Shown here: piece by piece, positions 29,913 to 64,000 of the stretch
Numbering within the stretch: position 1 is the first letter of the stretch
How the letters are laid out: the number at the start of each line of letters is the position of its first letter
Assembly: GCA_977017645.1 (NCBI GenBank)
Contig: OZ360240.1
Location: 75,826,001-75,890,000 of the forward strand
Direction of reading: 5' to 3'
Length of the DNA stretch: 64,000 nucleotides
Origin: Torpedo marmorata
Taxonomy: Eukaryota
The notes under the pieces: generated by a model
Databases searched by the model: none
What the model was told of the DNA's origin: nothing
The model's input: only the letters and a program-made list of their open reading frames with translations
Program-made: the position numbers and the translations under genes

Positions 29913-29949
29913 TAAAAAAAATTTAGACATACAGCACGGTAACAGGCCC
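29913..29949 (-). mobile_element. V-SINE 3' end (rest at 36796-37023)
   Basis: ATTTAGACATACAGCACGGTAACAGGCCC, as in intact copies at 52380 and 53860. Confidence 0.85.
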
Positions 29950-30522
29950 TATAGTGACTTCAATCCAACAAATAGTCACTTGGAGGCTAGGTGAGATACT
30001 TGTTCTTGACGCGTTTCAATTAATTTACTAACAAAGTCTAATATGTTCAAAATCTTTATTAACACATGATGACTTGTAGCAATCTTCAATAACGTAAATA
30101 TCTTCTTTAATGAAATATAAACAATTCTTGATAACGATGATCAACGATTCTTCAAAACATCTATAAACTTCCTTTAAACGTTACATTAAACATTCTTTTG
30201 ACGGTCAATGAAAGATATAGCGATCTCACTCACCCTCCTCTAAGCCACCATCTTTTTCTAACCCTTTTTCCCCGATTCGCGCATGCTCCAACCACGCATA
30301 CTACACCGCGCATACTCCACAGCGCATACTCCACTGCGCATACTCCACCGCGCATACTCCACCGCGCATACTGCTGTCACTTCCCAACTGTGTATGCGCC
30401 CGTCGGCACTCTCGCTCATGCGCAGAGTACTAAATAGGCCCAGAACGACCTACTAAACTCTGTGACTCCTGCGAACCCCACTGAGACCATTGGAACGCCG
30501 CGATGAAGGTAAATAAGTAACA
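29950..30522 (-). repeat. BEL 3' LTR
   Basis: Direct repeat of 36228-36779; minus-strand termini TGTTAC...TATA; internal 14-bp repeat CCGCGCATACTCCA (~6 copies here, ~4 in the 5' LTR). Confidence 0.93.
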
Positions 30523-31356
30523 CCGGCCCCTAATTATTATAATGAGACACAATGTCTTAAATAATAATTACACAATAAATGACAAATAACAATAACCATA
30601 TAACATTCAAACAATATACATATCTTCTTTCTTCATAAGACCAGAGTTTACCATAACTCTGAATCAACAAAAGTCTGTAACCTGTGAAGTATACAACAAC
30701 AAATAAAGTCAGTTTGTATTTATCAAAGTTCCTCCGTCTCCAACAGAAGGCAGACCTTGTTAATAGGTCGATTTAGAAAGCCAGTCTTAGTTTTAATTCG
30801 AACTTGACGCACAAGTCCCCTTTTGTCCTGAATAGTCTCAATAATTTTTCCAAGTAACCAGGAGCTTCTTGGAGTTGAATTATCCATAATAATCACAATG
30901 TCTCCTCAAAGTTCTTTTATCTCCAGAATCTTTGAGTTAAAACGTCGACCAGTAAACCTCAAATCTTCCTCACGCAAAATAGATACAGTTTTTCTTTTGA
31001 ATTTAACACGAGGCACTTCTTCAGCATGTCGTTTCACTTTATTCCTTTCTTCAGCATTCCACTTCTCATGTGAAGAATTTAAACACTTAGAACTAGAATT
31101 TGAATATTTATCTGATCCTCTCGATTTTAATAAACGAGTCTCTTTAAGCACTCTGGTTTCTATTGCCTTTTCCTGCAATTCCAAATCCAATTTTGCAACT
31201 TTCAATTCAGTCTCAGTTCCTTCTGAGAAATTAATAACTTGATCTGAAGTGAAAATATTATGTGATACATTGATATTTCTATTGTCAACCCTGCTGTGGT
31301 AAACTTGAAATTTTTGAATTTCTTCATCTACCTTGTTACATTTCTGTAATGCAATA

Positions 31357-32441
31357 CAGGTGCCTAACCTTTTATCCGTAATTCCAAAAACCGAAAACCT
31401 CCGAAAACCGAGCATTTTTTCCAGTGTATTTTCAGGTGTTTCGCCAGTTAATGTTTGAAGTTTTACTGTATGTTTTACTTAAAAATAAAAAGTACGCCAG
31501 TAATTTAATGGTATATCTTTATCTCACTTCATTTACCAACCCCCCCCACCCCGTCGAGCTCCACCGCGAACCCCCCCAGTCCAGCGCCGCTGCGAATGCC
31601 CCTGTCCAGCGCTGCTGCGAACGCTGCCGCGAACCCCCAGGTCCAGTGCCACCGCGAACCCACCCCATTCAACGCCGCCATGAACCCCCCACCCCGTCGA
31701 GCGCCACCGTGAACCCCCACCCCAGTCCAGTGCCGCCGTGAACGCCCCTGTCCTGCGCCGCTGCGAACACCCCGGTCAAACGCCACCGTGAACCCACCCC
31801 TTTCAGCGCAGCTGCGAACCCCCCATCCAGCGCCGCTGCGAACACCCCCGTCCAGCGCCACCGTGAACCCCCCCAGTCCAGTGCCGCCGCGAACGCCCCC
31901 ATCCAGCGCCACCACGAACAACCCCGTCGAGCGCCACCGCGAACCCACCCCTTTCAGCGCCGCCGCGAACCCCCGACCTGCGCCGCTGCGAATGCCGCCG
32001 CCAACACTGCTGTCCAACGCCGCCGCGAACACCCCCATGCAGTGCCGCCGTGAACACTGCTGTCCAACGCCGCCGCGAACACCCCCATGCAACGCCGCCG
32101 CGAACACCGCTGTCCAGCACCGCCGCGAACACCCCCGTGCAGCGCCGCCGCGAACACCACTGTCCAGCGCCGCCGCGTAAACCCCTGTGCAGCGCTGCCA
32201 CGAACACCCCCACGCAGCGCCGCCGTTAACACCCCCTTCCAGCGCCGCCACAAATCCCCTCCCCCCATCAAGCACCGCCATCCAGAAACCCTTCTAGTTG
32301 GAGTGTGTCTTTGTTTTGGCGAATCTGAAGCAACGCAATTATTTAAAAGTATCACCATTAAAATAATTCTATAATCCGAAAAAATCCGAATTCCGAAAAG
32401 TGTCCGGTCCCAAGGTTTTCGGATAAAAGGTTAGGCACCTG
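31357..32441. mobile_element. Tigger/MER2-like non-autonomous DNA transposon
   Basis: Perfect 22-bp TIRs CAGGTGCCTAACCTTTTATCCG; TA TSD at 31355-31356 and 32442-32443. Confidence 0.93.
31540..32280. repeat. GC-rich ~24-bp minisatellite inside the MITE
   Basis: Recurrent CCAGCGCCGCCGCGAACACCCC-like units. Confidence 0.9.
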
Positions 32442-35394
32442 TATCACTTTCTTTCTGCATTGTTAGTAGCTGAACATTCAATTTACATTCTTGATGGTTT
32501 TCTATAGTCAACTGTTTTGTGTTATTAACCAATAACTTGTTCTCTTTCAAAATATTAATCTCTTCCTCCAACCTTTTACATTTTGATAATGCTGAATCTC
32601 TTTCCTCAATAACTGTATTTATTTCTTCAGCAGTTATTCTTTTCTTCCGCTTTCTGACTTTGCAAATTTTACTTACAATTAAATCTTTCTGTTTACTGTT
32701 TTCATAATTACCTAATATTTCCAATTCCCCTTTCAACATTTTGTTCTCTGAATTCAATTGCATTAAATTATCATTCACATTCTTCTTTATTCCATCAGCA
32801 CAATTTCTTGCGTTCTCCAGTTTTACATCACATTGCAACATTTCTTCATTGACTTTGTCTGTTTTAACCTCTGAACTACAAAATCTACTTTCAAATTTGT
32901 TCTCAGTCACTTGTTTTATTCATGTACCTGATTCAATTACACATGAATAATCAATAGTATTATTTGCAACATCTTCTAATACTTCATTTTCATCCATTTC
33001 TGATGAACATAATTCCTTCAATGTTGTTTTAAATACCTTTGATTTATTTTCACATTGATCTATTTTCTTTTCTTCAAAAGTGATTTTCTTATTCACAGTC
33101 TTTTGCTCTTCCCTTAACTCATCAACTTTCACAACCGAAATCCTGTTAATATTTATCGCTAACTGTTCCTTAGCAATATCATTATTTCTTTCCAATGGTC
33201 CATTGATTGTCCAACCAAGCTTGGTTCTAACAGCGAAAGGTCCATTCCCTCTACTCCATATTACTTCTAGTGGTTCCAAAACCTTTGGCACATCTGAACC
33301 AATCAGCATTTCTATCTCAGAGTTAACTTCAGGTAAATAAACCTTCCACAGATAAGACAAATGATGGAAATCATTTTGATGAGGAATGTTTCCTTCATGC
33401 ACAGGCATAGTCTTCTGAGTGTATAAACTTGGAAGATCACAAAATTTTTTGTCACCAATCCAGCAACCTCTAAGCCTGAAACAATGCTTGTTTCAACGAC
33501 CTTTTCTTGTCCCACGGTTTTCAACATAATTCTTGACCTTCTTCCTTGAATATTAAGATTGTTCATTAGTCCTTCCATGCAAAAAGATGCAGTGCTGCCT
33601 GGGTCTAGAAATGCATATGTATGTACTGTTGCATCCCATTTTTTGTCTTGACTTGTACAGGCACGATCGAAAGTTTGCAGTTATCCACACCGGCCCCGGT
33701 AAGACCACTTGTCTGAACCAAGGTTATAACATTGTTTTCTGATGTTTCCTTTGTTTCTGTTTGCTCCTTTTCCAATTCCTTGTTTCTTTGATGAATATGC
33801 AACATTCTAGGATGTTTCAACTTACATATGTTACAATTAATTCGCTTCTCGCAGTTTTTACTGATGTGCCCTTTACACAGACAGCTAAAACATATTCCAT
33901 TTTCCTTTAAGAAAGCGATCTTCTCATTATGTTCCTTCTTTTCCAACTGTAAACACATTTCCAAAGTATGTCCACCTTTACAGAACAAACAACTCTTCTC
34001 ATTAGTCAAACTTTCCTTTTCCTTATTTACTTTATCTTTTTCTTTATTTATAACTGACATATTAGTAGCAAAAGTACTCCTTTTCAATTTTGGACCAGGC
34101 TGTGAGTTAGACCTCCTTACATCTTTGCCCATTGAATTGTCTCTGGTATTTCCATATATTGGATCTGTTTCAATGTACACCTGTCGTTCAAGAAATTTTA
34201 TCAAGTCCTTTAAGGTAGCTCTTCGACTGTAATTTTCTTGTAAATCACAAGCCAAATTTCTCCATCTATCCCACAACTTGTAAGGTAATTTTTCTAAAAT
34301 GATTCACATATTACCAGGCACTTCAAGCTCACGAATATTATCGATATCTTCCATGGCATTACAACATCCTCTTAAAAATAGAGTATATGCTTGTAGAGCC
34401 TTTACATCATTTTGTTTTATTGATGTCCATTTAAGAGCTTTATCCATATAAGCTAAAGCAATTTGATGCTTGTTGCCAACATGTTGTTCTAATAAAGATT
34501 TAGCTCTGTCTAATCCTCTTTCTGAGGACATATATTGACAACTCTTTACAAGTTCTTTTGGATGTCCTTCTGTGAACATTTCCAAATAATAAAGACATTC
34601 ATCAGGTTCTTGGCATTTATTTTCGATATTGCGTTTGAAAGATCTCATAAACGCTTGGTACTGAAGTGGATCACCATCAAAAGTTTGTATCTCTTTCTTG
34701 GGCAAAGAAGAGAGAGACTGTAACTGAATCAATGATGTAGCAATTTCATTTTGTCTTCCCTTGGATGACAATACATTGCTCTGTTCACCGTCTCTTGTTA
34801 CAGGTAATGTATCTGGAAATCTCACTGGTGTAGTTTCTCCCATATTTCTGATGCTTGACTCAAATGACAAGGGAGCTGCTTCGTTCGACCGAACCCAAGC
34901 CGTAGCTTTGTCTTCAGATGTTTCCACTGGTACATGTGACTCGATACCACAATGCTCTTGAAAGATTTGTCCTTGTATTCGCAAGTCTTGTACCCCTGGT
35001 GCTAAAATATCTATCCTTTTGGTTGGTTTCTTTTCCTGTGACTCTTTTTTAAAATATGACCTTTTATTATCATACACTTTAGATAATTTACTTCGATCAC
35101 CAAATACCATTGATCGTTCTAGTACCTCTTTTTTTGCCTTGGCAGTAGTAATGTTTGCTTCCAGCTCCTGCAGCTCCTTTCTCTGCCTGAGCTGCTCCTT
35201 CTCTTGCCTTAGCTGCTCCTTCAGCTGCTCCTCCTTTTGTTTTAGCTGCTCCTCCTGTCGTTCTAAAATATGTTTATCCTTAAGCGTTTTTTGTTGTGCA
35301 AGAAGAGCGGCCAAGTTAACTTCAATCTTTGTACGTGACGATGAAGAACTTGAAGTACGAGAAACTCTGGAGCTCGAACCAGAATTCGTTTGCT

Positions 35395-35781
35395 TCTCCT
35401 GCTTTCAGCATTTGAGACACTGTCACTTGCTTGTATTTCGTCCTGCAGGTCATATGTTTTCTTCTTACTTACCTCCTTCACAAATTCGAATTGTACATCC
35501 TTTGCATCTTCATCCTCTTCATTTTCTTCATCCTCTTCATTTTCTTCATCATTTAGTGACACAATTTCAGCCATTTCCACGTTGCTATCTTCTTGTTCAT
35601 CTAATGAAACCGCATCTTCCTTTGCCAGCATCAGTCTTGTGATGAGAACCCTTTTATTTCCACTTATATCTAGTTTCATTCCCTTCAATTCTTTTTTAAT
35701 ATCCGCAACCTTCATGTCTTCAATACGTTGGTCCTCAATAGCAACATCAGCAGTTGCTGCGTCAGCGGCTGCTGTGGCCAT
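35395..35781 (-). CDS. N-terminus of BEL Gag with SAP domain and acidic tract (frameshifted from the rest of gag)
   Basis: MATAAADAATA..IEDMKVADIKKELKGMKLDISGNKRVLITRL fits the SAP pattern; followed by BEL-typical DEIQASDSVSN. Confidence 0.75.
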
Positions 35782-36227
35782 TTTACTCGTCTTGTTCCAC
35801 TGTCCTTCAAGCATACACAACACTAGCCAAATCAACAGTCCCCAATGGACAAGCGGCAGCAAATCCAATCTGTGTTCAAACTTGCCAAAGATACACAGGA
35901 GTCCACAGACTTATGCCTACCACTTCAGATGACTGTAATGCCTACCAACGAGTTTCCACCACAACATCCGTCATTAATATCGCTGATTTTCCAGAAATGG
36001 TTTCTCCAACGTATTTATAGTACACTCTACTATAAGATTTGAAGCTTTAAATCCCTCTCTGGCTGTTACTCATGGCAGATGGATGTGGATTACAAACTGC
36101 CCCCAACTCGAGGCATCTCCAAGATGGCCACCATTTTATTTTAAATATCAGTCCAAAGCACAGAGAGATTATTCTATCTTCTTTCCTTCAATTTTCTGTT
36201 CCAAACAACCTCTTTCATTGACTAAAA

Positions 36228-36779
36228 TATAGTGACTTCAATCCAACAAATAGTCACTTGGAGGCTAGGTGAGATACTTGTTCTTGACGCATTTCAATTA
36301 ATTTACTAACAAAGTCCAATATGTTCAAAATGTTTATCAACACATGATGACTTGTAGCAATCTTCAATAACTTAAATATCTTCTTTAATGAAATATAAAC
36401 AGTTCTTGATAACGATGATCAACAACGATTCTTCAAAACATCTATAAACTTCCTTAAAACGTTACATTAAACATTCTTTTGACGTTCTTTTGACGGTCAA
36501 TGAAAGATGTAGCGATCTCACTCATCCTCCTCAGCCGCCATCTTTTTCTAATCCTTTTTCCCCGATTCGCACATGCTCCAACCGCGCATACTCCACTGCG
36601 CATACTCCACCGTGCATACTCCACCGCGCATATTGCCGTAACTTCCCAACTGCGCATGCGCCCGTCGGCACTCTTGCGCATGTGCAGAGTACTAAATAGG
36701 CCCAGAACGACCTACTAAACACCGTGAATCCTCCGAACCCCGCTGAGACCATCAGAACGCCGCGATGAAGGTAAGTAAC
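36228..36779 (-). repeat. BEL 5' LTR
   Basis: Direct repeat of 29950-30522; carries TGCGCATGCGC (NRF1-type) and AAGATGGCGG (YY1-type) motifs. Confidence 0.93.
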
Positions 36780-36795
36780 TAATCCTATGGCTCTT

Positions 36796-37023
36796 ACAGG
36801 CCCTTTCAGCCCACGAGCTCGTGCCACCCAATTACACCCAATTAACCTACAACCCCCGGTACGTTTCGAACGGTGGGAGGAAACCGGAGCCCCCGGGGAA
36901 AACCCACGCAGACACGGGGAGAACGTACAAACTCCTTACAGACAGCGCGGGAATCAAACCCCTTTCCCAATTGCTGGCGCTATAACAGTGCTGCGCTAAC
37001 CGTTATGCTAACCGTGCCGCCCT
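36796..37023 (-). mobile_element. V-SINE body
   Basis: V-domain and tRNA-like head. Confidence 0.88.
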
Positions 37024-37078: not shown

Positions 37079-40000
37079 TGTAGTGATAGAGTGCTATTGA
37101 TACTCCTGACCACTAGAAGGAGTCAGAGACTAGTTTGTTGCAACTCGTTTGGATTCAAGATGGATGCCTCCACACGGTCATGAGTTCTATAGCTAATAAA
37201 GTATAGTTGTTTTAAAATAACCCAAGTTTCTTTATTACAATAAAAGAAACATCACATGGTACCAGGAGTGAGAATCAGTCGATAGCAGCAGAGAAATGGA
37301 AAGTGTGAAGGTTCCTGATGCTGTAAATTGGACTGGAAATGTCGACCACGAGTGGAGGTTGTTCAAACAAAGATTCATGTTGTACCTGCAAGCCATTGGA
37401 GTCGATAGCAAACCTGATGCACGGAAGATTGCACTGCTACTTACCGTGGCGGGACCTCAAGCACTAAAGGTTTTCAATACATTTGTTTTTGACGAGGCAG
37501 AAGACCAGGACAAGTTTGACAAGGTTATCGAGATGTTTGATGAACACCGTTCACCAAAGAAAAATGAAACATTCGAGAGGTATGTGCTTCACTCGCGCAC
37601 CAGCTGCAGGGAGAGAGCTTTGATACTTTTTTAACGGACTTGAAATTAAAAACAAGAACATGCAATTTTAGATCGCTACAAGATTCAATGATCCGTGATC
37701 AAATTGTGTTCGGGATTATTGATAAGAAAGTGAGAGAGAGGTTGCTACGAGAGACAAAGCTTACCTTAGCTGGAGCTGTGAAGATATGCCACGCCAGTGA
37801 ATTAGCTCTGCAGCATGCGAAAAAGTTCAGTGATAGTGCAAAAGCCAGTGAAAACGAAGGCATAGCCGTAGCCACAGTGTCGGGACACACGCACAAACAA
37901 AAAATGAGATATAGGAAACAACAAAAAGATGGAGAGACATTCATTTGCAAACAACGTGGCACTCAACATGCACCAAAACAATGCCCCGCCTATGGAAAAG
38001 TCTGTAATAAGTGCAAAGGGCAGAATCATTATGCAAAGCAATGTTTTTCCAAAGGGAAACAAAACAGAAGTGAAAGCATGCACACTGTACACACTATAGA
38101 AGAAAATGCCCTCAGTGATACATTTTTTGTGGGCATGGTAGTGCAGAAAGACTATAAACCAACAGACACTGAACAGCCAAGCGTGAACAGCGTCGAGCAG
38201 GACAAGTGGACTGTGTCATTACATACAAATGGAACAAATATTCCTTTCAAGCTGGACACAGGGGCAATGGTCAATTTGATCTGTGAGCGCGACATCAGGG
38301 CAATGAAGATAAAGCCATACATCCATGCAAATCCTGTACAGCTCAAAGCCTACAATGGACAGAGCATCGACACGAAAGGTACATGTAAACTCAAGGTGAA
38401 AGTTAAAGATAAAGAGCACCACCTCAGGTTCACAGTAGTCCCAGATGGACATTATTCACTGCTTGGTGACAAAGCATGTGAAAACTTAAGCCTAGTCAAG
38501 AGGGTGTACCACATTATCAGCGCCAATGCATGGAACAGTGTAGAGGAAATACTGGATCAATTTCCAGACATCTTCAAGGGGTTTGGAGTTCAACCATTCA
38601 CCTATATGATACAGTTAAAGGAGGACACACAGCCAGTAGTGCATGCTCCAAGGCGGGTTCCAGCGCCACTAAAAGAAAAGCTCAAGCAGAAACTCGACTG
38701 AATGATGTGACTAGGGGTCATAAAGAAAGTGGAGGAGCCCACAGAATGGGTGAATTCAATGGTTTGTGTCAAAAAGAAGAACAGTGACCGACGCGTGTGC
38801 ATGGACCCAAAAGACTTGATTGTCAATATAAAGAGGAAACATTATCAGATTCCGACCAGGGATGAAATTACAAGTCAGATGGCCGGTGCAAACCTTTCAC
38901 TAAATTGGATTCATCCCAGGGCTTCTGGAAAATAAAACTGCATGAAGATAGCACAAAATACTGTACATTTAATACACCGTTTGGCCGATACTCCTGTCTG
39001 AGGATGCCTTTTGGAATTTCCTCAGCTCCGGAAGTGTTCCACAGGACAATGGAGCACATCATAGAAGGCATAAATGGGGTACGTGTGTACATGGATGACA
39101 TGATCCTATGGGGATCCACACAAGAACAACACAACGAGAGGGTCATCAAAGTGCTACAACGCATCCAGAAGTATGGATTAAAGTTAAACAGAGAAAACTG
39201 TCAGTTTGGTGTGAAGGAAATCACCTTTCTGGGAGATAAACTGTCAGAGGCAGGTGTGGAGCCAGACAAGAGCAAGGTGAAAGCAATTTTAGAGATGACC
39301 AGACCCACTGACAAAAAAGGCATATTGAGAGTGCTGGGAATGATCAAGTTCATTGGTAAATTCATACCAAACCTGTCTTCCAAAACAATGTACCTAAAGA
39401 GGTTGTTACAGGACAAATGTGAATTCAAGTGGACAGACAACCTCGAGTAAGAATGGGGACGACTGAAGACCATTCTAACTACAGAACCAGTGCTTTTGAC
39501 ATTCTTTGAAGCATCCAGAAGGACGAAAATATCTACGGACACTTCAAAAGATGGAATAGGTACCATACTACTTCAGGCTGTGGGAGAAGATTGGAGGCCA
39601 GTAGCATACGCATCAAGGACGATGATAACATCTGAATGTCGATATGAACAGATCGAGAAAGAGTGTCTAGGTCTGGTCTATGGACTCGAGAAATTCCACA
39701 TTTATTTGTATGGTCTACCAACATTCATGGCAGAGACAGACCACAAGCCATTAATAGCGATAATCAAGAACAATCTCAGTGAAATGTCGCCACGAATCCA
39801 AAGACTGATGATGAAGCTACAACGTTATGACTTTGAATTGGTTTACACACCAGGGAAACTTATTGTGCTGGCTGATACGTTATCCAGGGCAACGACGCAG
39901 AGTGAAGCACACAATGAGAGTTTCACAGAGACAGATGTGAATCTCCACGTGAACCTGATCACTGAATCTCTTCCCGTATCTAACATGAAATCCAAACAGA

Positions 40001-41582
40001 TCACAGCTGAAACAGAAAAGGACACAGTTCTACAGAAGGTCATCAAGAATCTGAATGAAGGATGGCCTAGAGGTGAATGTCAGCCATACTACAACATCAG
40101 AGCTGAGCTGAGTGTTGTCAATGGGCTTCTTCTCAGACAGAGCAGAATTGTCATTCCTCAATCACTGCGACAAGAGATGCTGAAAATGGTGCATGAGGGG
40201 CACCTTGGAATGGAAAAATGCAAGAGGAGGGCCAGAACTGCTGTTTATTGGCCAGAGATAAACGCTGACATTGACAGGATGGTTTCCAGCTGTGAGACCT
40301 GTTTGAAACATCACGCAAAGCAGACAAAGGAACCCATGATAATAACTGACTTACCAGCAGAACCATGGCAGAAAGTTAGGACTGATCTATTCCACATGGA
40401 TGGAAATAATTACTTGCTGCTTATTATCTATCGAACTATCCGGAGATTGCGCTGCCTCATGCTTGTGTGATCAAATATATGAAATCGATCTTTGCAAGAC
40501 ATGGAATTCCTCAAATTGTCTACGGTGACAATGGACCATGCTACAGCTGTAGAGAATTCCAGAACTTTGCAGAAGAGTATGATTTTCAACATGTGACTTC
40601 AAGTCCTCTGCATCCACAGTCAAACGGTAAAGCAGAGAAAGGAGTTCATATAGTTAAACAGTTGCTCAAGAAAGCACCAGACAGTGGCTCAGATCCTTAT
40701 CTAGCTCTATTGAGTTACAGAGCTTCCCCCCTTGAACATGGCATGTCACCCGCTGAGCTTCTGATGGGACGTAGACTACGCACAACACTTCCCCACTTTG
40801 CAGAACAGAGATGTCAAACGGAAACAAAAGCGTCTGCAATGCAGACAAAAAGCAAACTATGACACGACAGCAAGAAGCTTAGGAATGCCTAACCTGAAGA
40901 AGTTCGCGTTTGCTCTCCGAAGGGAGTTCTGTGGGATTCTCTCTCACTGCTCCCCATCTAACGAGGGATGACACAGTGAAACTCAGAGATTCCAACACTT
41001 GGGACAAAAAGGCTACTGTTCTGGAAGAAGTAAATCCAATATCCTGCACTGTCAGAACAGAGGATGGTCAAATACTGAGAAGGAATCGAAAGATCCTGCT
41101 GAAAACGCAAGAGACACTGCAGGAACAGATAAATGCAGAAGATCCAGCCTGCACAGCAACAGAGGAAACACCAGCAGTGCTAGACAGTAGTGGACCAGCA
41201 GAGCTGACAGAAGCACCTGTGTTAAGAAGATCCACACGTGTTATCAAAGCACCTGACAGGCTGAATCTCTAAAAGAAAAAGAACTGCACACTTAAAAAGT
41301 TTGTGCTGCTGATGTTGTGTTTACGTTTGTGTTGAACTTTAAATTGAAATGAATACTGTATTAGTGTGTCATGTTGTTAGATTAAACATCTCAAGGAAAG
41401 GGGATGTAGTGATAGAGTGCTAGTGATACTCCTGACCACTAGAGGGAGTCGGAGACTAGTTTGTTGCAACTCATTTGGATTCAAGATGGATACCTCCACA
41501 CGGTCATGAGTTCTATAGCTAATAAAGTATAGTTGTTATAAAAGAACCCAAGTTTCTTTATTACAATAAAAGAAACATCACA
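37079..41582 (+). mobile_element. Full-length Gypsy LTR retrotransposon (short LTRs), disrupted ORFs
   Basis: LTRs 37079-37256 and 41405-41582 (7 differences in 178 bp by eye); TSD TACAG (37074-37078, 41583-41587); purine-rich PPT 41393-41404; gag 37296, protease KLDTGA, RT YMDD (38905-39450), RNase H and Zn finger (39490-40470), integrase DNGP..SNGKAE (40467-40862). Confidence 0.96.
37257..37270 (+). promoter_or_regulatory. tRNA primer-binding site (tRNA-Leu-like)
   Basis: TGGTACCAGGAGTG directly after the LTR, complementary to a tRNA-Leu(TAA) 3' end as recalled. Confidence 0.75.
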
Positions 41583-41649
41583 TACAGTATATGATATGAT
41601 TATGTATTGTATAATGTGTACTGGTTGTATCACAGCCTGGTTTGGTAAT

Positions 41650-45857: not shown

Positions 45858-46010
45858 CTTTCATCATTTTAATGTTTGTTAAGTTTTCAGCAAAGACTAT
45901 TAACCCTTTACTTGGCAGCAGGGTGCCAGTGCGCAGTGTGGCAGATGGCCCTCTGGGCTGGAGAGTGAGGTGTGTTGGGAAGGACTTGTTGGTTGAAAAG
46001 ATGATGTGAA

Positions 46011-47200
46011 AGGGGTGCAGGGAGGGAAGGAGAGATGGAGGAGGAGTGCAGGGAAGGAAGGAGAGATGGAGGAGGGGTGCAGGGAAGGAAGCAGAGACGG
46101 AGGAGGGGTGCAGGGAAGGAAGGAGAGATGGAGGAGAGGTGCAGGGAAGGAAGGAGAGATGGAGGAGGGGTGCAGGGAAGGAAGGAGAGATGGAGGAGAG
46201 GTGCAGGGAGGGAAGGAGAGATGGAGGAGAGGTGCAGGGAAGGAAGGAGAGATGGAGGAGGGGTGCAGGGAAAGAAGCAGAGATGGAGGAGGGGTGCAGG
46301 GGAGGAAGGAGAGATGGAGGAGAGGTGCAGGGAAGGAAGGAGAGATGGAGGAGGGGTGCAGGGAAGGAAGGAGAGATGGAGGAGGGGTGCAGGGAAGGAA
46401 GGAGAGATGGAGGAGGGGTGCAGGGAAGGAAGGAGAGATGGAGGAGGGGTGCAGGGAAGGAAGGAGAGATGGAGGAGAGGTGCAGAGAAGGAAGGAGAGA
46501 TGGAGGAGAGGTGCAGGGAAGGAAGGAGAGATGGAGGAGGGGTGCAGGGAAGGAAGGAGAGATGGAGGAGAGGTGCAGGGAAGGAAGGAGAGATGGAGGA
46601 GGGGTGCAGGGAAGGAAGGAGAGATGGAGGAGGGGTGCAGGGAAGGAAGGAGAGATGGAGGAGAGGTGCAGGGAGGGAAGGAGAGATGGAGGAGGGGTGC
46701 AGGGAAGGAAGGAGAGATGGAGGAGGGGTGCAGGGAAGGAAGGAGAGATGGAGGAGAGGTGCAGGGAAGGAAGGAGAGGTGGAGGAGGGGTGCAGGGAAG
46801 GAAGGAGAGATGGAGGAGAGGTGCAGGGAAGGAAGGAGAGATGGAGGAGGGGTGCAAGGGTTGGTAGGAGAGATGGAGGAGGGGTGCAGGGAGGGAAGGA
46901 GAGATGGAGGAGGGGTGCAGGGAAGGAAGGAGAGATGGAGGAGGGGTGCAGGGAAGGAAGGAGAGATGGAGGAGGGGTGCAGGGAAGGAAGGAGAGATGG
47001 AGGAGGGGTGCAGGGAAGGAAGGAGAGATGGAGGAGGGGTGCAGGGAAGGAAGGAGAGATGGAGGAGCGGTGCAGGGAGGGAAGGAGAGATGGAGGAGAG
47101 GTGCAGGGAAGGAAGGAGAGATGGAGGAGCGGTGCAAGGAAGGAAGGAGAGATGGAGGAGAGGTGCAGGGAAGGAAGGAGAGATGGAGGAGCGGTGCAAG
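46011..47200. repeat. 31-bp purine-rich minisatellite (~38 copies)
   Basis: Unit GGAGAGATGGAGGAG(G/A)GGTGCAGGGAAGGAA. Confidence 0.96.
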
Positions 47201-48539
47201 GGTTGGAAGGAGGGGACGGGTTTGAGGGAAGGATGGGGTCAGAGAGAAAAGATTTGGGTATAGGGAGGAGAAGGGTGACAGGGAAGGAGAGAGTGGGCAC
47301 GGTGTCTGTTCCAGAGCCCACACCTTGGTGCACACAAGTACAGAAATGCTGTACCTCACTCTCTCAAGCTCATTGGAAGCTGGTAGGACAGAGATGGTGG
47401 AAAAAAATCAAGCACAGGTCACTTCTAGTCCTCAATGACAAGGCCCGAAACTGGGCCGTTCAGTAGTTGAGCTGCACGTGATGATCACGGTTTCTTTTCA
47501 CTGTATTAATCTTGAAATGTAATCAAAGACAAACATACAGTTTAAAGAAATAAAATACTCCTCTGCTCCGTCTATTTCCTGCTATGCTTACTTTACCAAT
47601 TCTCTCTTTTTAAACCTGTTTTTTAAAAAAGGTATTTATTGAGCATCAAAAACAACTTCGTTCACGTTATACAGATGTACATTGTGCTCCTGTTTTCTTT
47701 TTTTAACAGAAAAACCAACACACATATATACAAACGTTCACATACCACCCTCAGAAACACGCCCGGAACCCCACCCCCACCCCCCCGACCACGTTGGCAC
47801 CTTTGCTGACAGTATCATCGGTATATTACCGACTGTACCGGTACAACCGTCTCACAGTTAGTCTTTTACTCCATAAGCACTCGTAATTCAGAGAAAAAAC
47901 ACATAAAAGGTTGACATTTGTGAAACCTGTTTTGACATTTATATTTACAGCCTTCTCCCTGCCTAACTCACTTCAAAGAAAGATTTTTTATATATTTTAA
48001 ATGGACGTCTATTGGCTGTGAGCTTTTTTTATGGCAGTGGCAAAGCGATGAAATCATCATTATTTTTATTGTTATCAGCTCATCGGACATAATATCATGA
48101 CAGAGTATCAGGCTAGGTCATTAAGCCAATCAAGACTATCTCCCTATTTAGTTAGATCACAATCGATCCTCAAATTGTATTTGCATCATCTTCAAAGAAT
48201 TGTCAATTACATTGATTCAGCATCCACAGCTTTTTAGGGAGAAAGTTCAACATTTTTACTAGTCTGTGAGGGCCAATGTCGTTTTGGGAAATCAGTTGGT
48301 GCAGCTGCAATGTAAGATCCTGCCACCACCTACGTTTAGCAACCAAAAGGTCCTGTTCTATAGAATCCCTTGATTTCCTTTAGTGATTTCTGTTTAATCA
48401 ATGCTCAACTTTCTAAATTCATGAGAAATTGAATTTTTGCACCCTTCTTCGTGATTCAGTTCTTCAAGCCCAGTTTAATCTTGTTTCAAGGCCTAAGCTA
48501 ATGTTTGAAGGACAGTGCTCAGCTGAGATCAGAGACTCA

Positions 48540-61663: not shown

Positions 61664-64000
61664 TGTAATGATAGTGTGCTAGTGATCCTCCTGACCACTA
61701 GAGGGAGTCGGAGACTAGTTTGTTGCAGCTTCGGTTGGATTCAAGATGGATGCCTCACACGGTCTTGTCTGTGTGTGTTCTAGCTAATAAATATAGTTGT
61801 TTTAAACGAACCCAAGTTTCTTTATTACAATAAAAGAAACATTACATGGTACCAGGGGTGTGAATGGTGAGTGGAAGAAACACCAGGAGTGTGCAGAGTG
61901 AGAATCAGTCGATAGCATGGAGAGTGTAAAGTCTCCTGATGCTGTAAATTGGACTGGAAATGTCGACCACGAGTGGAGGTTGTTTAAACAAAGATTCATG
62001 CTGTACCTGAAAGCCATTGGAGTCAATAGCAAACCTGATGCACGGAAGATTGCACTGCTACTTACCGTGGCGGGACCTCAAGCACGAGAGGTTTTCAGTA
62101 CATTTGTTTTTGCCAAGGCAGAAGACCAGGGAAAATTCGACAAGGTTATCGAGATGTTTGATGAACACTGTTCACTAAAGAAAAATGAAACGTTCGAGAG
62201 GTACGTGTTTCGCTCATGCATGCAGCTGCAGGGAGAGAGCTTTGATATTTTTTTATTTTTATTTATTTATTTATTTATTTATTTTTTAAAATCGGACTTG
62301 AAATTAAAAGCAAGAACATGCTATTTTGGATCGCTGCAAGACTCAATGATCCGTGATGAAATTGTGTTTGAGATTATTGATAAGAAAGTGAGAGAGAGGT
62401 TGCTGTGAGAGACAGAGCTTACCTTAGCTGGAGCTGAGAAGATATGCCACGCCAGTGATTTAGCTCTGCAGCATGTCTAAAGGTTCGGTGAAAGTGCCAT
62501 AGTGTCGGGACACACACACAAACAAAAAACGAGATATAGGAAACAACAAAAAGATGGAGAGACATTCAAGTGCAAACGATGTGGCACTCAACAAAGGGCA
62601 GAATCACTATGCAAAACAATGTTTTTCCAAAGGGAAACAAAACAGAAGTAAAAGTGTGCACACTATAGAAGACACTGTACACACTATAGAAGAAACTGCC
62701 CTCAGTATTACACTTTTTGTTGGCATAGTAGTGCAGAAAGACTATAAACCAACAAACACTGAACAGCCAAGCATGAACAGAGTCGAGCAGGACAAGTGGA
62801 CTGTGTCATTGCATGCAAGTGGAACAAATATTCCTTTCAAGCTGGACACAGGGGCAAGTGTCAATTTGATCTGTGAGCGCGACATCAGGGCAATGAAGTT
62901 AAAGCCATACATCCATGCAAATCCTGTACAGCTCAAAGCCTACAATGGACAGAGCATCGACACGAAAGGTACATGTAAATTCAAGGTGAAAGTTAAAGAT
63001 AAAGAGCACCACCTCAGGTTCACAGTAGTCCCAGATGGACATGAATCACTGCTGGGTGACAAAGCATGTGAAAACTTAAGCCTAGTCAAGAGGGTGTACG
63101 CACCAGGGAAACCTATTGTGTTAGCTGATACGTTATCCAGGGAAACGACGCAGACTGAAGCACACAATGAGAGTTCCACAGAGACAGATGTGAATCTCCA
63201 TGTGAACCTGATCACTGAATCTCTTCCCGTATCTGACATGAAATCCAAACAGATCGCAGCTGAAACAGAAAAGGACACAGTTCTACAGAAGATCATCAAG
63301 AATCTGAATGAAGGATGGCCTAGAGGTGAATGTCAGCCATACTACAACATCAGAGCTGAGCTGAGTGTTGTCAATGGGCTTCTACTCAGACAGAGCAGAA
63401 TTGTCATTCCTCAATCACTGCGACAAGAGATGCTGAATAGGGTGCGTGAGGGGCACCTTGGAATGGAAAAATGCAAGAGGAGGGCCAGAACTGCTGTTTA
63501 TTGACCAGGGATAAACGCTGACATTGACAGGATGGTTTCCAGCTGTGAGACCTGTTTCAAACATCACGCAAAGCAGACAAAGGAACCCACGATAATAACT
63601 GACTTACCAGCAGAACCATGGCAGAAAGTTGGGACTGATCTGTTCCACATGAATGGAAATAATTACTTGCTGGTTATTGATTATTTATCAAACTATCCAG
63701 AGATTGCGCTGCTTCCTAATATGTCTGCTGCTTGTGTGATAAAATATATGAAATCGATCTTTGCAAGACCTGGAATTCCTCAAATTGTCTACAGTGACAA
63801 CAGACCATGCTACAGCTGTAGAGAATTCCAGAACTTTGCAGAAGAGTGTGATTTTCGACATGTGACTTCAAGTCCTCTGCATCCACAGTCAAACGGTAAA
63901 GCAGAGAAAGGAGTTCACATAGTTAAACAGTTGCTCAAGAAAGCACTAGACAGTGGCTCAGACCCGTATCTAGCTCTATTCAGTTACAGAGCTTCGCCAC
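61664..64000 (+). mobile_element. Second copy of the 37079 Gypsy family, RT/RNase H deleted, runs off the right edge
   Basis: LTR 61664-61846, PBS TGGTACCAGG; gag 61917-62408; ORF 62554-63504 joins protease to integrase Zn finger. Confidence 0.94.

Follow-up and report, generated by a model that had tools for sequence, protein, structure and literature searches.

Predicted self-priming by LTR RNA in a BEL/Pao retrotransposon lineage with contiguous and intron-split primers

Immediately downstream of its 5′ LTR, the BEL/Pao retrotransposon described here carries a short leader sequence that is complementary to a stretch within the same LTR, and this self-complementary pairing is real and non-random. 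We regard it as likely that the element's own LTR RNA primes its reverse transcription, in the manner of the yeast element Tf1. A sequence-only reading of the same DNA had proposed this mechanism for a superfamily other than that of Tf1, and the proposal is now supported by pairing that covaries among relatives and by searches in which no matching tRNA was found. All coordinates refer to the window, the whole 64-kb stretch of DNA that was analysed, in which the element lies on the minus strand (Table 1).

Table 1. Sequence features of the BEL/Pao element and its Gypsy neighbour, in window coordinates
Feature	Position	Strand	Remarks
5′ LTR	36228..36798	-	571 nt, TG..TA
3′ LTR	29950..30522	-	573 nt
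Target site duplication GGGCC	36799..36803; other copy 29945-29949	-	Flanks both element ends
Polypurine tract AGGGGCCGG	30523..30531	-	Precedes 3′ LTR
Predicted self-primer, 11-nt core in 5′ LTR	36496..36506	-	12 nt with 36507 in window copy
Primer binding site, 11-nt core, LTR-complementary, no TGG	36212..36222	-	Pairing and tRNA tests
Spacer from LTR end to primer site	36223..36227	-	TTTTA-initial leader, 5 nt in window copy
Second copy of primer sequence, in 3′ LTR	30204..30215	-	Exact match
U5 terminal hairpin, 7-bp stem	36231..36258	-	z -0.8, weak alone
Purine tract with AAGATGGCGG	36535..36550	-	Also predicted to fold onto first primer bases
ATTAAA, candidate polyadenylation signal	36384..36389	-	118 nt downstream of primer-site start
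gag region, broken	33600..35910	-	SAP domain, DUF1759, three Cys-His boxes
Integrase C-terminal tail, like that of full BEL polyproteins	30730..30905	-	Homology
tRNA-Leu(TAA)-type primer site of Gypsy neighbour, TGGTACCAGGAGTG	37257..37274	+	14-nt match

The element spans 36798-29950 (-), is bounded by LTRs of the form TG..TA and is flanked by a 5-bp target duplication. Its 5′ and 3′ LTRs align over 543 columns, 513 of them identical and 30 mismatched, and both end in TA, as had been read; the LTR start, TGTAAGAGCC or a close variant, recurs in 29 of 30 family copies. The earlier assignment to BEL/Pao has held up as well. The LTRs, the target site duplication and the polypurine tract agree with it, as do the DUF1759 domain of gag (Pfam, E 2.9e-5, just under the curated cut-off), the three Cys-His boxes of the gag translation and the kinship of the proteins, whose longer homologues, 34 in number, are polyproteins of BEL type, with fish and one barnacle as sources of the named ones; 33 of the 34 have the BEL-type domains PF03564 or PF05380 or close fish kinship. 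The third Cys-His box, CX2CX3HX4H, differs from the Suzu form given in the available text of PMC554778. Given the BEL-type proteins, a Tf1/sushi (Ty3/gypsy chromovirus) identity was ruled out. The window element lacks the 18-nt host-tRNA primer site that serves as an ICTV criterion for Belpaoviridae, and its membership in BEL/Pao, as judged by protein descent, is left intact by this. First-look searches of the genome gave 5412 candidates for the LTR junction and 44904 for gag.

The interior of the window copy is degraded. A protease motif follows gag in a shifted frame, and between protease and integrase tail a Pfam search of the window copy found no RT, RNase H or integrase core. The PR-RT-RH-IN series is present in L050, a copy with the same LTR, and in a sister family; in the window copy it is absent beyond the protease. 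A SAP domain lies at the gag N-terminus (35900-35630, -) and is listed among the 34 homologues only for the barnacle protein. In the place expected for RT, RNase H and integrase, 33100-30950 (-) is an open region rich in Glu, Lys and Asn with no Pfam match. An insertion with terminal inverted repeats (CAGGTG start), flanked by TA and holding an internal GC-rich 25-nt tandem array, occupies 31357-32441 inside the element and looks like a non-autonomous DNA transposon. The BEL element itself sits in a dispersed short repeat (36804-37023; 29944 onward), of which further copies occur in the window as families D4, D5, D12 and D20. Elsewhere in the window, 45887-47400 is a tandem array of about 39 or more copies of a 31-nt unit, open in several frames.

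Past the 5′ LTR end at 36228, the minus strand reads TTTTA and then GTCAATGAAAGA (36222-36211), whose exact reverse complement occurs once in each LTR, at 36507-36496 (5′) and 30215-30204 (3′), just as the earlier claim that the primer sequence is kept in the other LTR would have it; no further occurrence of the complement was found in the 64 kb. Dinucleotide shuffling of the LTR produced a 12-nt match in 1 of 5000 trials, and among 190 internal 30-nt windows only the leader gave 12 nt, the next best giving 10. The repeat had been presented as a 12-mer, which is exact in the window copy, but the conserved unit is only 11 nt (36222-36212 with 36506-36496). Among family copies, represented by the 30 best of 40 scored, the twelfth pair is T:T in 21, A:T in seven and G:T in two; it is thus formed by A:T in only 7 of 30, which leaves a working unit of 11 nt. 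Over these 11 positions, 22 copies pair by Watson-Crick rules throughout, three have one G-U and five one mismatch. The spacer between LTR end and primer site varies from 4 to 7 nt across the 30 copies.

A tRNA partner for the site was sought in two ways. A genome pattern for the fitting tRNA 3′ end gave 31 matches against 15 for a reversed control; the element's own leader accounted for most of the 31, and the 17 that were fetched included no tRNA. Direct comparison of the site with 28 host tRNA sequences, a set that spans seven amino acids and missed the Gypsy control, gave a best agreement of 9 of 18 positions, a result that carries little weight with so small a set. The same pattern design applied to the primer site of the neighbouring Gypsy element returned seven identical tRNA-like matches, and ARAGORN called a tRNA-Leu(TAA) gene in one of the two fetched. 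A match of the BEL site to a tRNA, raised beforehand as evidence that would count against self-priming, was thus absent from a genome pattern search that recovered its Gypsy control, and the Gypsy element, cited as an internal contrast with a normal tRNA primer site, proved to be one, the complement of TGGTACCAGGAGTG lying in the tRNA-Leu(TAA) gene. This neighbour (37079-41583) has short LTRs of ~180 nt, and a second copy starts near the window end (61900-64000).

All four BEL families seen in the genome (A, that of the window, and B, C and D) keep the pairing in differing letters. Sister family B comprises 18 young loci with LTRs 98-100% alike; its site, GTCAATAAAG, is present in 18 of 18, the matching complement is reported in 17, and site and complement have changed together relative to the window family, giving a 10-nt pairing. 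Both parts are present in 8 of 15 loci of family C (~81% to B in RT), over 10-12 nt and with LTRs ending in CA, and family D (~77%), in its one readable copy, shows a different word that matches over 12 nt, its LTR end being inferred from a second locus. The 5-bp duplications of family B, 11 clear and one ambiguous among the 18 loci, place the TA end of the LTR directly before the target duplication in the 11 clear cases. In the same family (L031-L048) the primer site follows the TA end at a distance of 0, 2 or 6 nt, in each case with a clean 5-bp duplication, and this variable gap suggests flexible trimming of the end. LTR ends are TA in families A, B and D and in L095 and L114, and CA in C and most others. 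Families A and B share a donor-like GGTGAGT 16-19 nt upstream of the primer (window 36526-36521, -); it is altered in the 5′ LTR of the window copy and present in its 3′ LTR and in most copies. A genome pattern search for copies changed at this motif gave four matches and, judged from the matched letters only, no recurrent junction; nothing indicated that the motif is used.

Beyond this genome, a metagenome scan yielded 80 BEL loci in 52 families. In many families whose LTR end is fixed by a second LTR, only part of the complement is present, and such partial complements start right after a pyrimidine tract and AG or end right at GTAAGT; on reading the LTRs, the two parts join once a GT..AG intron is removed. 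This intron was first spotted by eye, and later searches required a splice consensus. Among 15 families with the LTR end so anchored, three are contiguous (the window family with 12 nt, the sister family with 10 and L056 with 12), 11 are split, pairing over 11-15 nt across the junction versus 6-11 without it, and one is without a match, so that 14 of 15 have a pairing of 10-15 nt that begins 0-5 nt away from the LTR end. The exception, L125, is an old copy that lacks a match because each of its LTRs carries a change. Eight families with an inferred LTR end comprise seven contiguous (9-15 nt) and one split, and the 31 remaining families six split, one contiguous and two with an acceptor-adjacent match and the donor outside the contig; the other 22 of the 31 gave no credible match, mostly for lack of LTR sequence. 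Eight additional loci contributed two split families, L210 and L211, which differ by three bases at the end of exon 1 with matching changes in the site; five of the eight had no usable LTR pair, and L214 gave no junction match. The overall count is 13 contiguous families and 20 split ones.

The LTR segment removed in the 20 split families, 74-451 nt long, has a GT(A/G)AG donor, a pyrimidine tract and a YAG acceptor with the junction in register, and the sixth donor base, which lay outside the search criteria, is T in 11 of 12 families; we predict that it is a spliceosomal intron. The nearest named proteins of one split family belong to anthozoans and abalone. A pattern scan of viral contigs gave 21 matches, none of them confirmed. 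BEL retrotransposons also turn up, as loci L208-L215, in contigs labelled bacterial MAGs, where they most likely represent host DNA binned with bacteria.

The letters of the helix change freely as its pairing persists. Among 24 families there are 20 distinct 11-nt words, and positions 1-9 are all Watson-Crick, with no G-U and two to four pair types at each position, in a table that holds only families with a match and hence leans to pairing, the unselected figure being the 14 of 15 anchored families. Loss of pairing in relatives, which had been named as a result that would speak against the mechanism, is therefore not what these families show. The site opens with G in 21 families and with A in three, and in 22 of 24 a C follows the primer.

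In a 64-row tree of RT-RNase H, a single branch (100/97) unites the 13 contiguous families, the four of this genome among them, with named fish proteins, and split families occupy all other branches. One doubtful row coded as contiguous, L113, falls among the split families; because its match begins at an AG close to where the contig ends, it is probably split with its donor outside the contig, and the Gypsy-rooted tree does not include it. With midpoint rooting the tree reads as one intron loss. Rooting with the RT of the window's Gypsy element, on a branch of length 10, places the root inside the contiguous group and does not reject a single clade for the split group, this outgroup being too distant to give direction.

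Where the RNA starts bears directly on whether the helix can form, and the indirect evidence on the start is mixed. Folding the window copy from varied starts gave a helix probability of 0.98 with 0-10 extra 5′ bases and 0.00 with at least 20, the AAGATGGCG motif capturing the first bases of the primer; a similar loss, to an upstream hairpin, is predicted for the sister family. Most families reach a cis helix probability of at least 0.8 when the 5′ tail is short. The sequence-only reading had placed a promoter-like motif ~40 nt upstream of the primer stretch, and the purine/AAGATGGCGG motif indeed starts 43 nt upstream; AAGATGGCGG in this tract we take to be a YY1-like motif. TATA-like boxes occur in six related LTRs, 47-64 nt upstream of the primer site, and none was found at that position in the LTR of the window family; their placement in relatives suggests an RNA start 17-34 nt before the site, with extra 5′ bases of the kind predicted to abolish the helix. 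The primer may accordingly differ from the very 5′ end of the RNA, and in the split families it cannot be the plain 5′ RNA end. Several related LTRs add a helix of 4-5 bp after a bulge. The U5 hairpin has mostly weak z-scores across families, with a compensatory pair in the sister family, and a third duplex like that of the Tf1 "pretzel" could form in the window and sister families but does no better than control tails across families.

The precedent for such a mechanism is Tf1, in which the RNA's initial 11 bases anneal to the site and the RNase H cut falls between bases 11 and 12, as described in the available text of PMC7175516. In the BEL element, the LTR stretch would be part of the genomic RNA, close to its 5′ end, and would fold onto the primer site as in yeast Tf1. 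A cut after ..AC, for which an autonomous relative would presumably supply the RT RNase H, would free a 3′ OH, from which minus-strand DNA would run back to the cut. For strand transfer, the LTR segment between the cut and the poly(A) signal would act as R, and plus-strand synthesis would copy the primer, renewing the site; such copying would explain why the pairs are Watson-Crick only and the spacer is variable (0-7 nt). In split families the primer would form only after the predicted LTR intron had been spliced out. If this happens in cis, the 5′ copy would be spliced and the 3′ copy unspliced: inheritance of the intron would require an unspliced 3′ copy, and the cap-proximal 5′ intron would presumably be spliced as the 3′ intron stays. 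Alternatively, the primer of the split families may come from a separate spliced RNA.

A more encompassing account, to which we would give slightly less than an even chance, extends these steps to history. A whole aquatic BEL/Pao lineage would be tRNA-independent, its original primer being splice-built, with the 5′ intron spliced, the 3′ intron kept and splicing licensing reverse transcription; the vertebrate-type branch, which includes the window element, would then trace back to a single event: the 3′ intron too was spliced out and the product reverse-transcribed, fixing a contiguous primer.

Among other explanations, one that shares the claim of tRNA-independence with cis self-priming has the element encode a primer that acts in trans: a short LTR-derived RNA, spliced in split families, would be made from 3′ or solo LTRs, co-packaged and trimmed, with the genomic RNA remaining unspliced. 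Trans supply would account for the survival of introns in progeny LTRs, and it finds material to draw on in the poly(A)-like signal downstream of the primer site in 22 of 23 family LTRs and in the many candidate LTR matches (5412) in the genome. We nevertheless judge it unlikely, since the Tf1 precedent acts in cis (PMC7175516, in its available text) and the cis helix is predicted at the high probability given above for short 5′ tails in most families, though none of the present observations tells cis from trans.

Distinctly unlikely, in our estimate, is a role of the helix as a structural switch in packaging, dimerisation, translation or poly(A) control, with priming left to a host RNA such as an internal tRNA fragment. 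An alternative hairpin does compete with the helix, the host tRNA set that was compared spanned seven amino acids, and half-tRNA priming occurs in some Copia lineages according to the available text of PMC6317226. Against this, the helix sits exactly at the primer-site position in 33 of 33 families, the site varies as freely as its 20 words in 24 families attest, which a fixed host RNA would forbid, and the G-U pairs presumably to be expected of a switch number zero in positions 1-9. Finally, in a control in which each site was compared with the LTRs of other families (506 pairs), 23 scores reached at least 10 nt, six contiguous and 17 spliced, 16 of the latter among five families with one shared site word. 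Chance, or a by-product of one family's history, is highly improbable even though the words are A/T-rich and contiguous cross-family scores of 9-13 nt occur in 27 of the 506 pairs, given 10-15 nt at one fixed position in nearly all independently anchored families, 11 of them across splice-site-like ends in a set whose sixth donor base is almost always T.

Cis self-priming by LTR RNA, the reading we prefer, has counterparts outside BEL/Pao. Tf1 and Tf2 of Schizosaccharomyces pombe, Tj1, Tosmo1-3 and the Tf1/sushi group have the same ~11-nt LTR-complementary site by the LTR end with an adjoining U5 stem, as far as the available texts of PMC7175516, PMC4600332 and PMC10085805 go. The Tf1/sushi group consists of Ty3/gypsy chromoviruses, whereas the window element is BEL/Pao, a different superfamily. 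In Tf1 the first 11 nt of the RNA serve as primer, whereas the BEL relatives suggest a longer 5′ tail; the duplexes flanking the primer site in the Tf1 pretzel (PMC10085805, available portion) make a three-duplex structure that is weakly supported across BEL families; and an intron-split primer, predicted in 20 BEL families, goes unmentioned for Tf1/sushi in the portions of these sources at hand. For plant elements, Tcn1 (gypsy) and TAR/Houba/Osr-1 (copia), self-priming was likewise predicted from sequence outside yeast, and the trait arose in more than one superfamily; these belong to other superfamilies than the window element, and the available part of that source does not name BEL/Pao (PMC6317226). 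The fungal GalEa Copia elements, with their Conserved Hairpin Site, likewise have no tRNA site after the 5′ LTR, but there the pairing lies within the internal region and the authors found no LTR complement, according to the accessible text of PMC5445492.

The ICTV 2021 account describes Belpaoviridae as tRNA-primed, with an 18-nt site for host tRNA-Arg or -Gly, and BEL/Pao replication as poorly understood (PMC8742986). With this family the window lineage shares LTRs, polypurine tract, triple Cys-His gag and, in full-length relatives, PR-RT-RH-IN, but no 18-nt tRNA site was found in it (PMC8742986). In the available texts of PMC554778 and PMC3118150 there is no occurrence of tRNA or priming. 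The literature covered, which also takes in parts of PMC3601003, PMC6934838, PMC8220671 and PMC5443660, held no published account of BEL/Pao self-priming or of splice-built primers; Repbase, subscription papers, supplements and the primary Tf1 papers lay outside its scope, and an earlier remark is therefore possible.

The sequence yields base-exact predictions, namely the cut site, the exon junction and which LTR copy is spliced. If the mechanism is true, it would explain why primer sites are missing in tRNA-based annotation of these elements, and its split form would link initiation of reverse transcription with splicing, a connection of which the literature searched gave no instance. BEL elements would then presumably stand outside control by tRNA fragments, and their self-priming would represent another independent origin of tRNA-free priming, in animals and in a widespread lineage.
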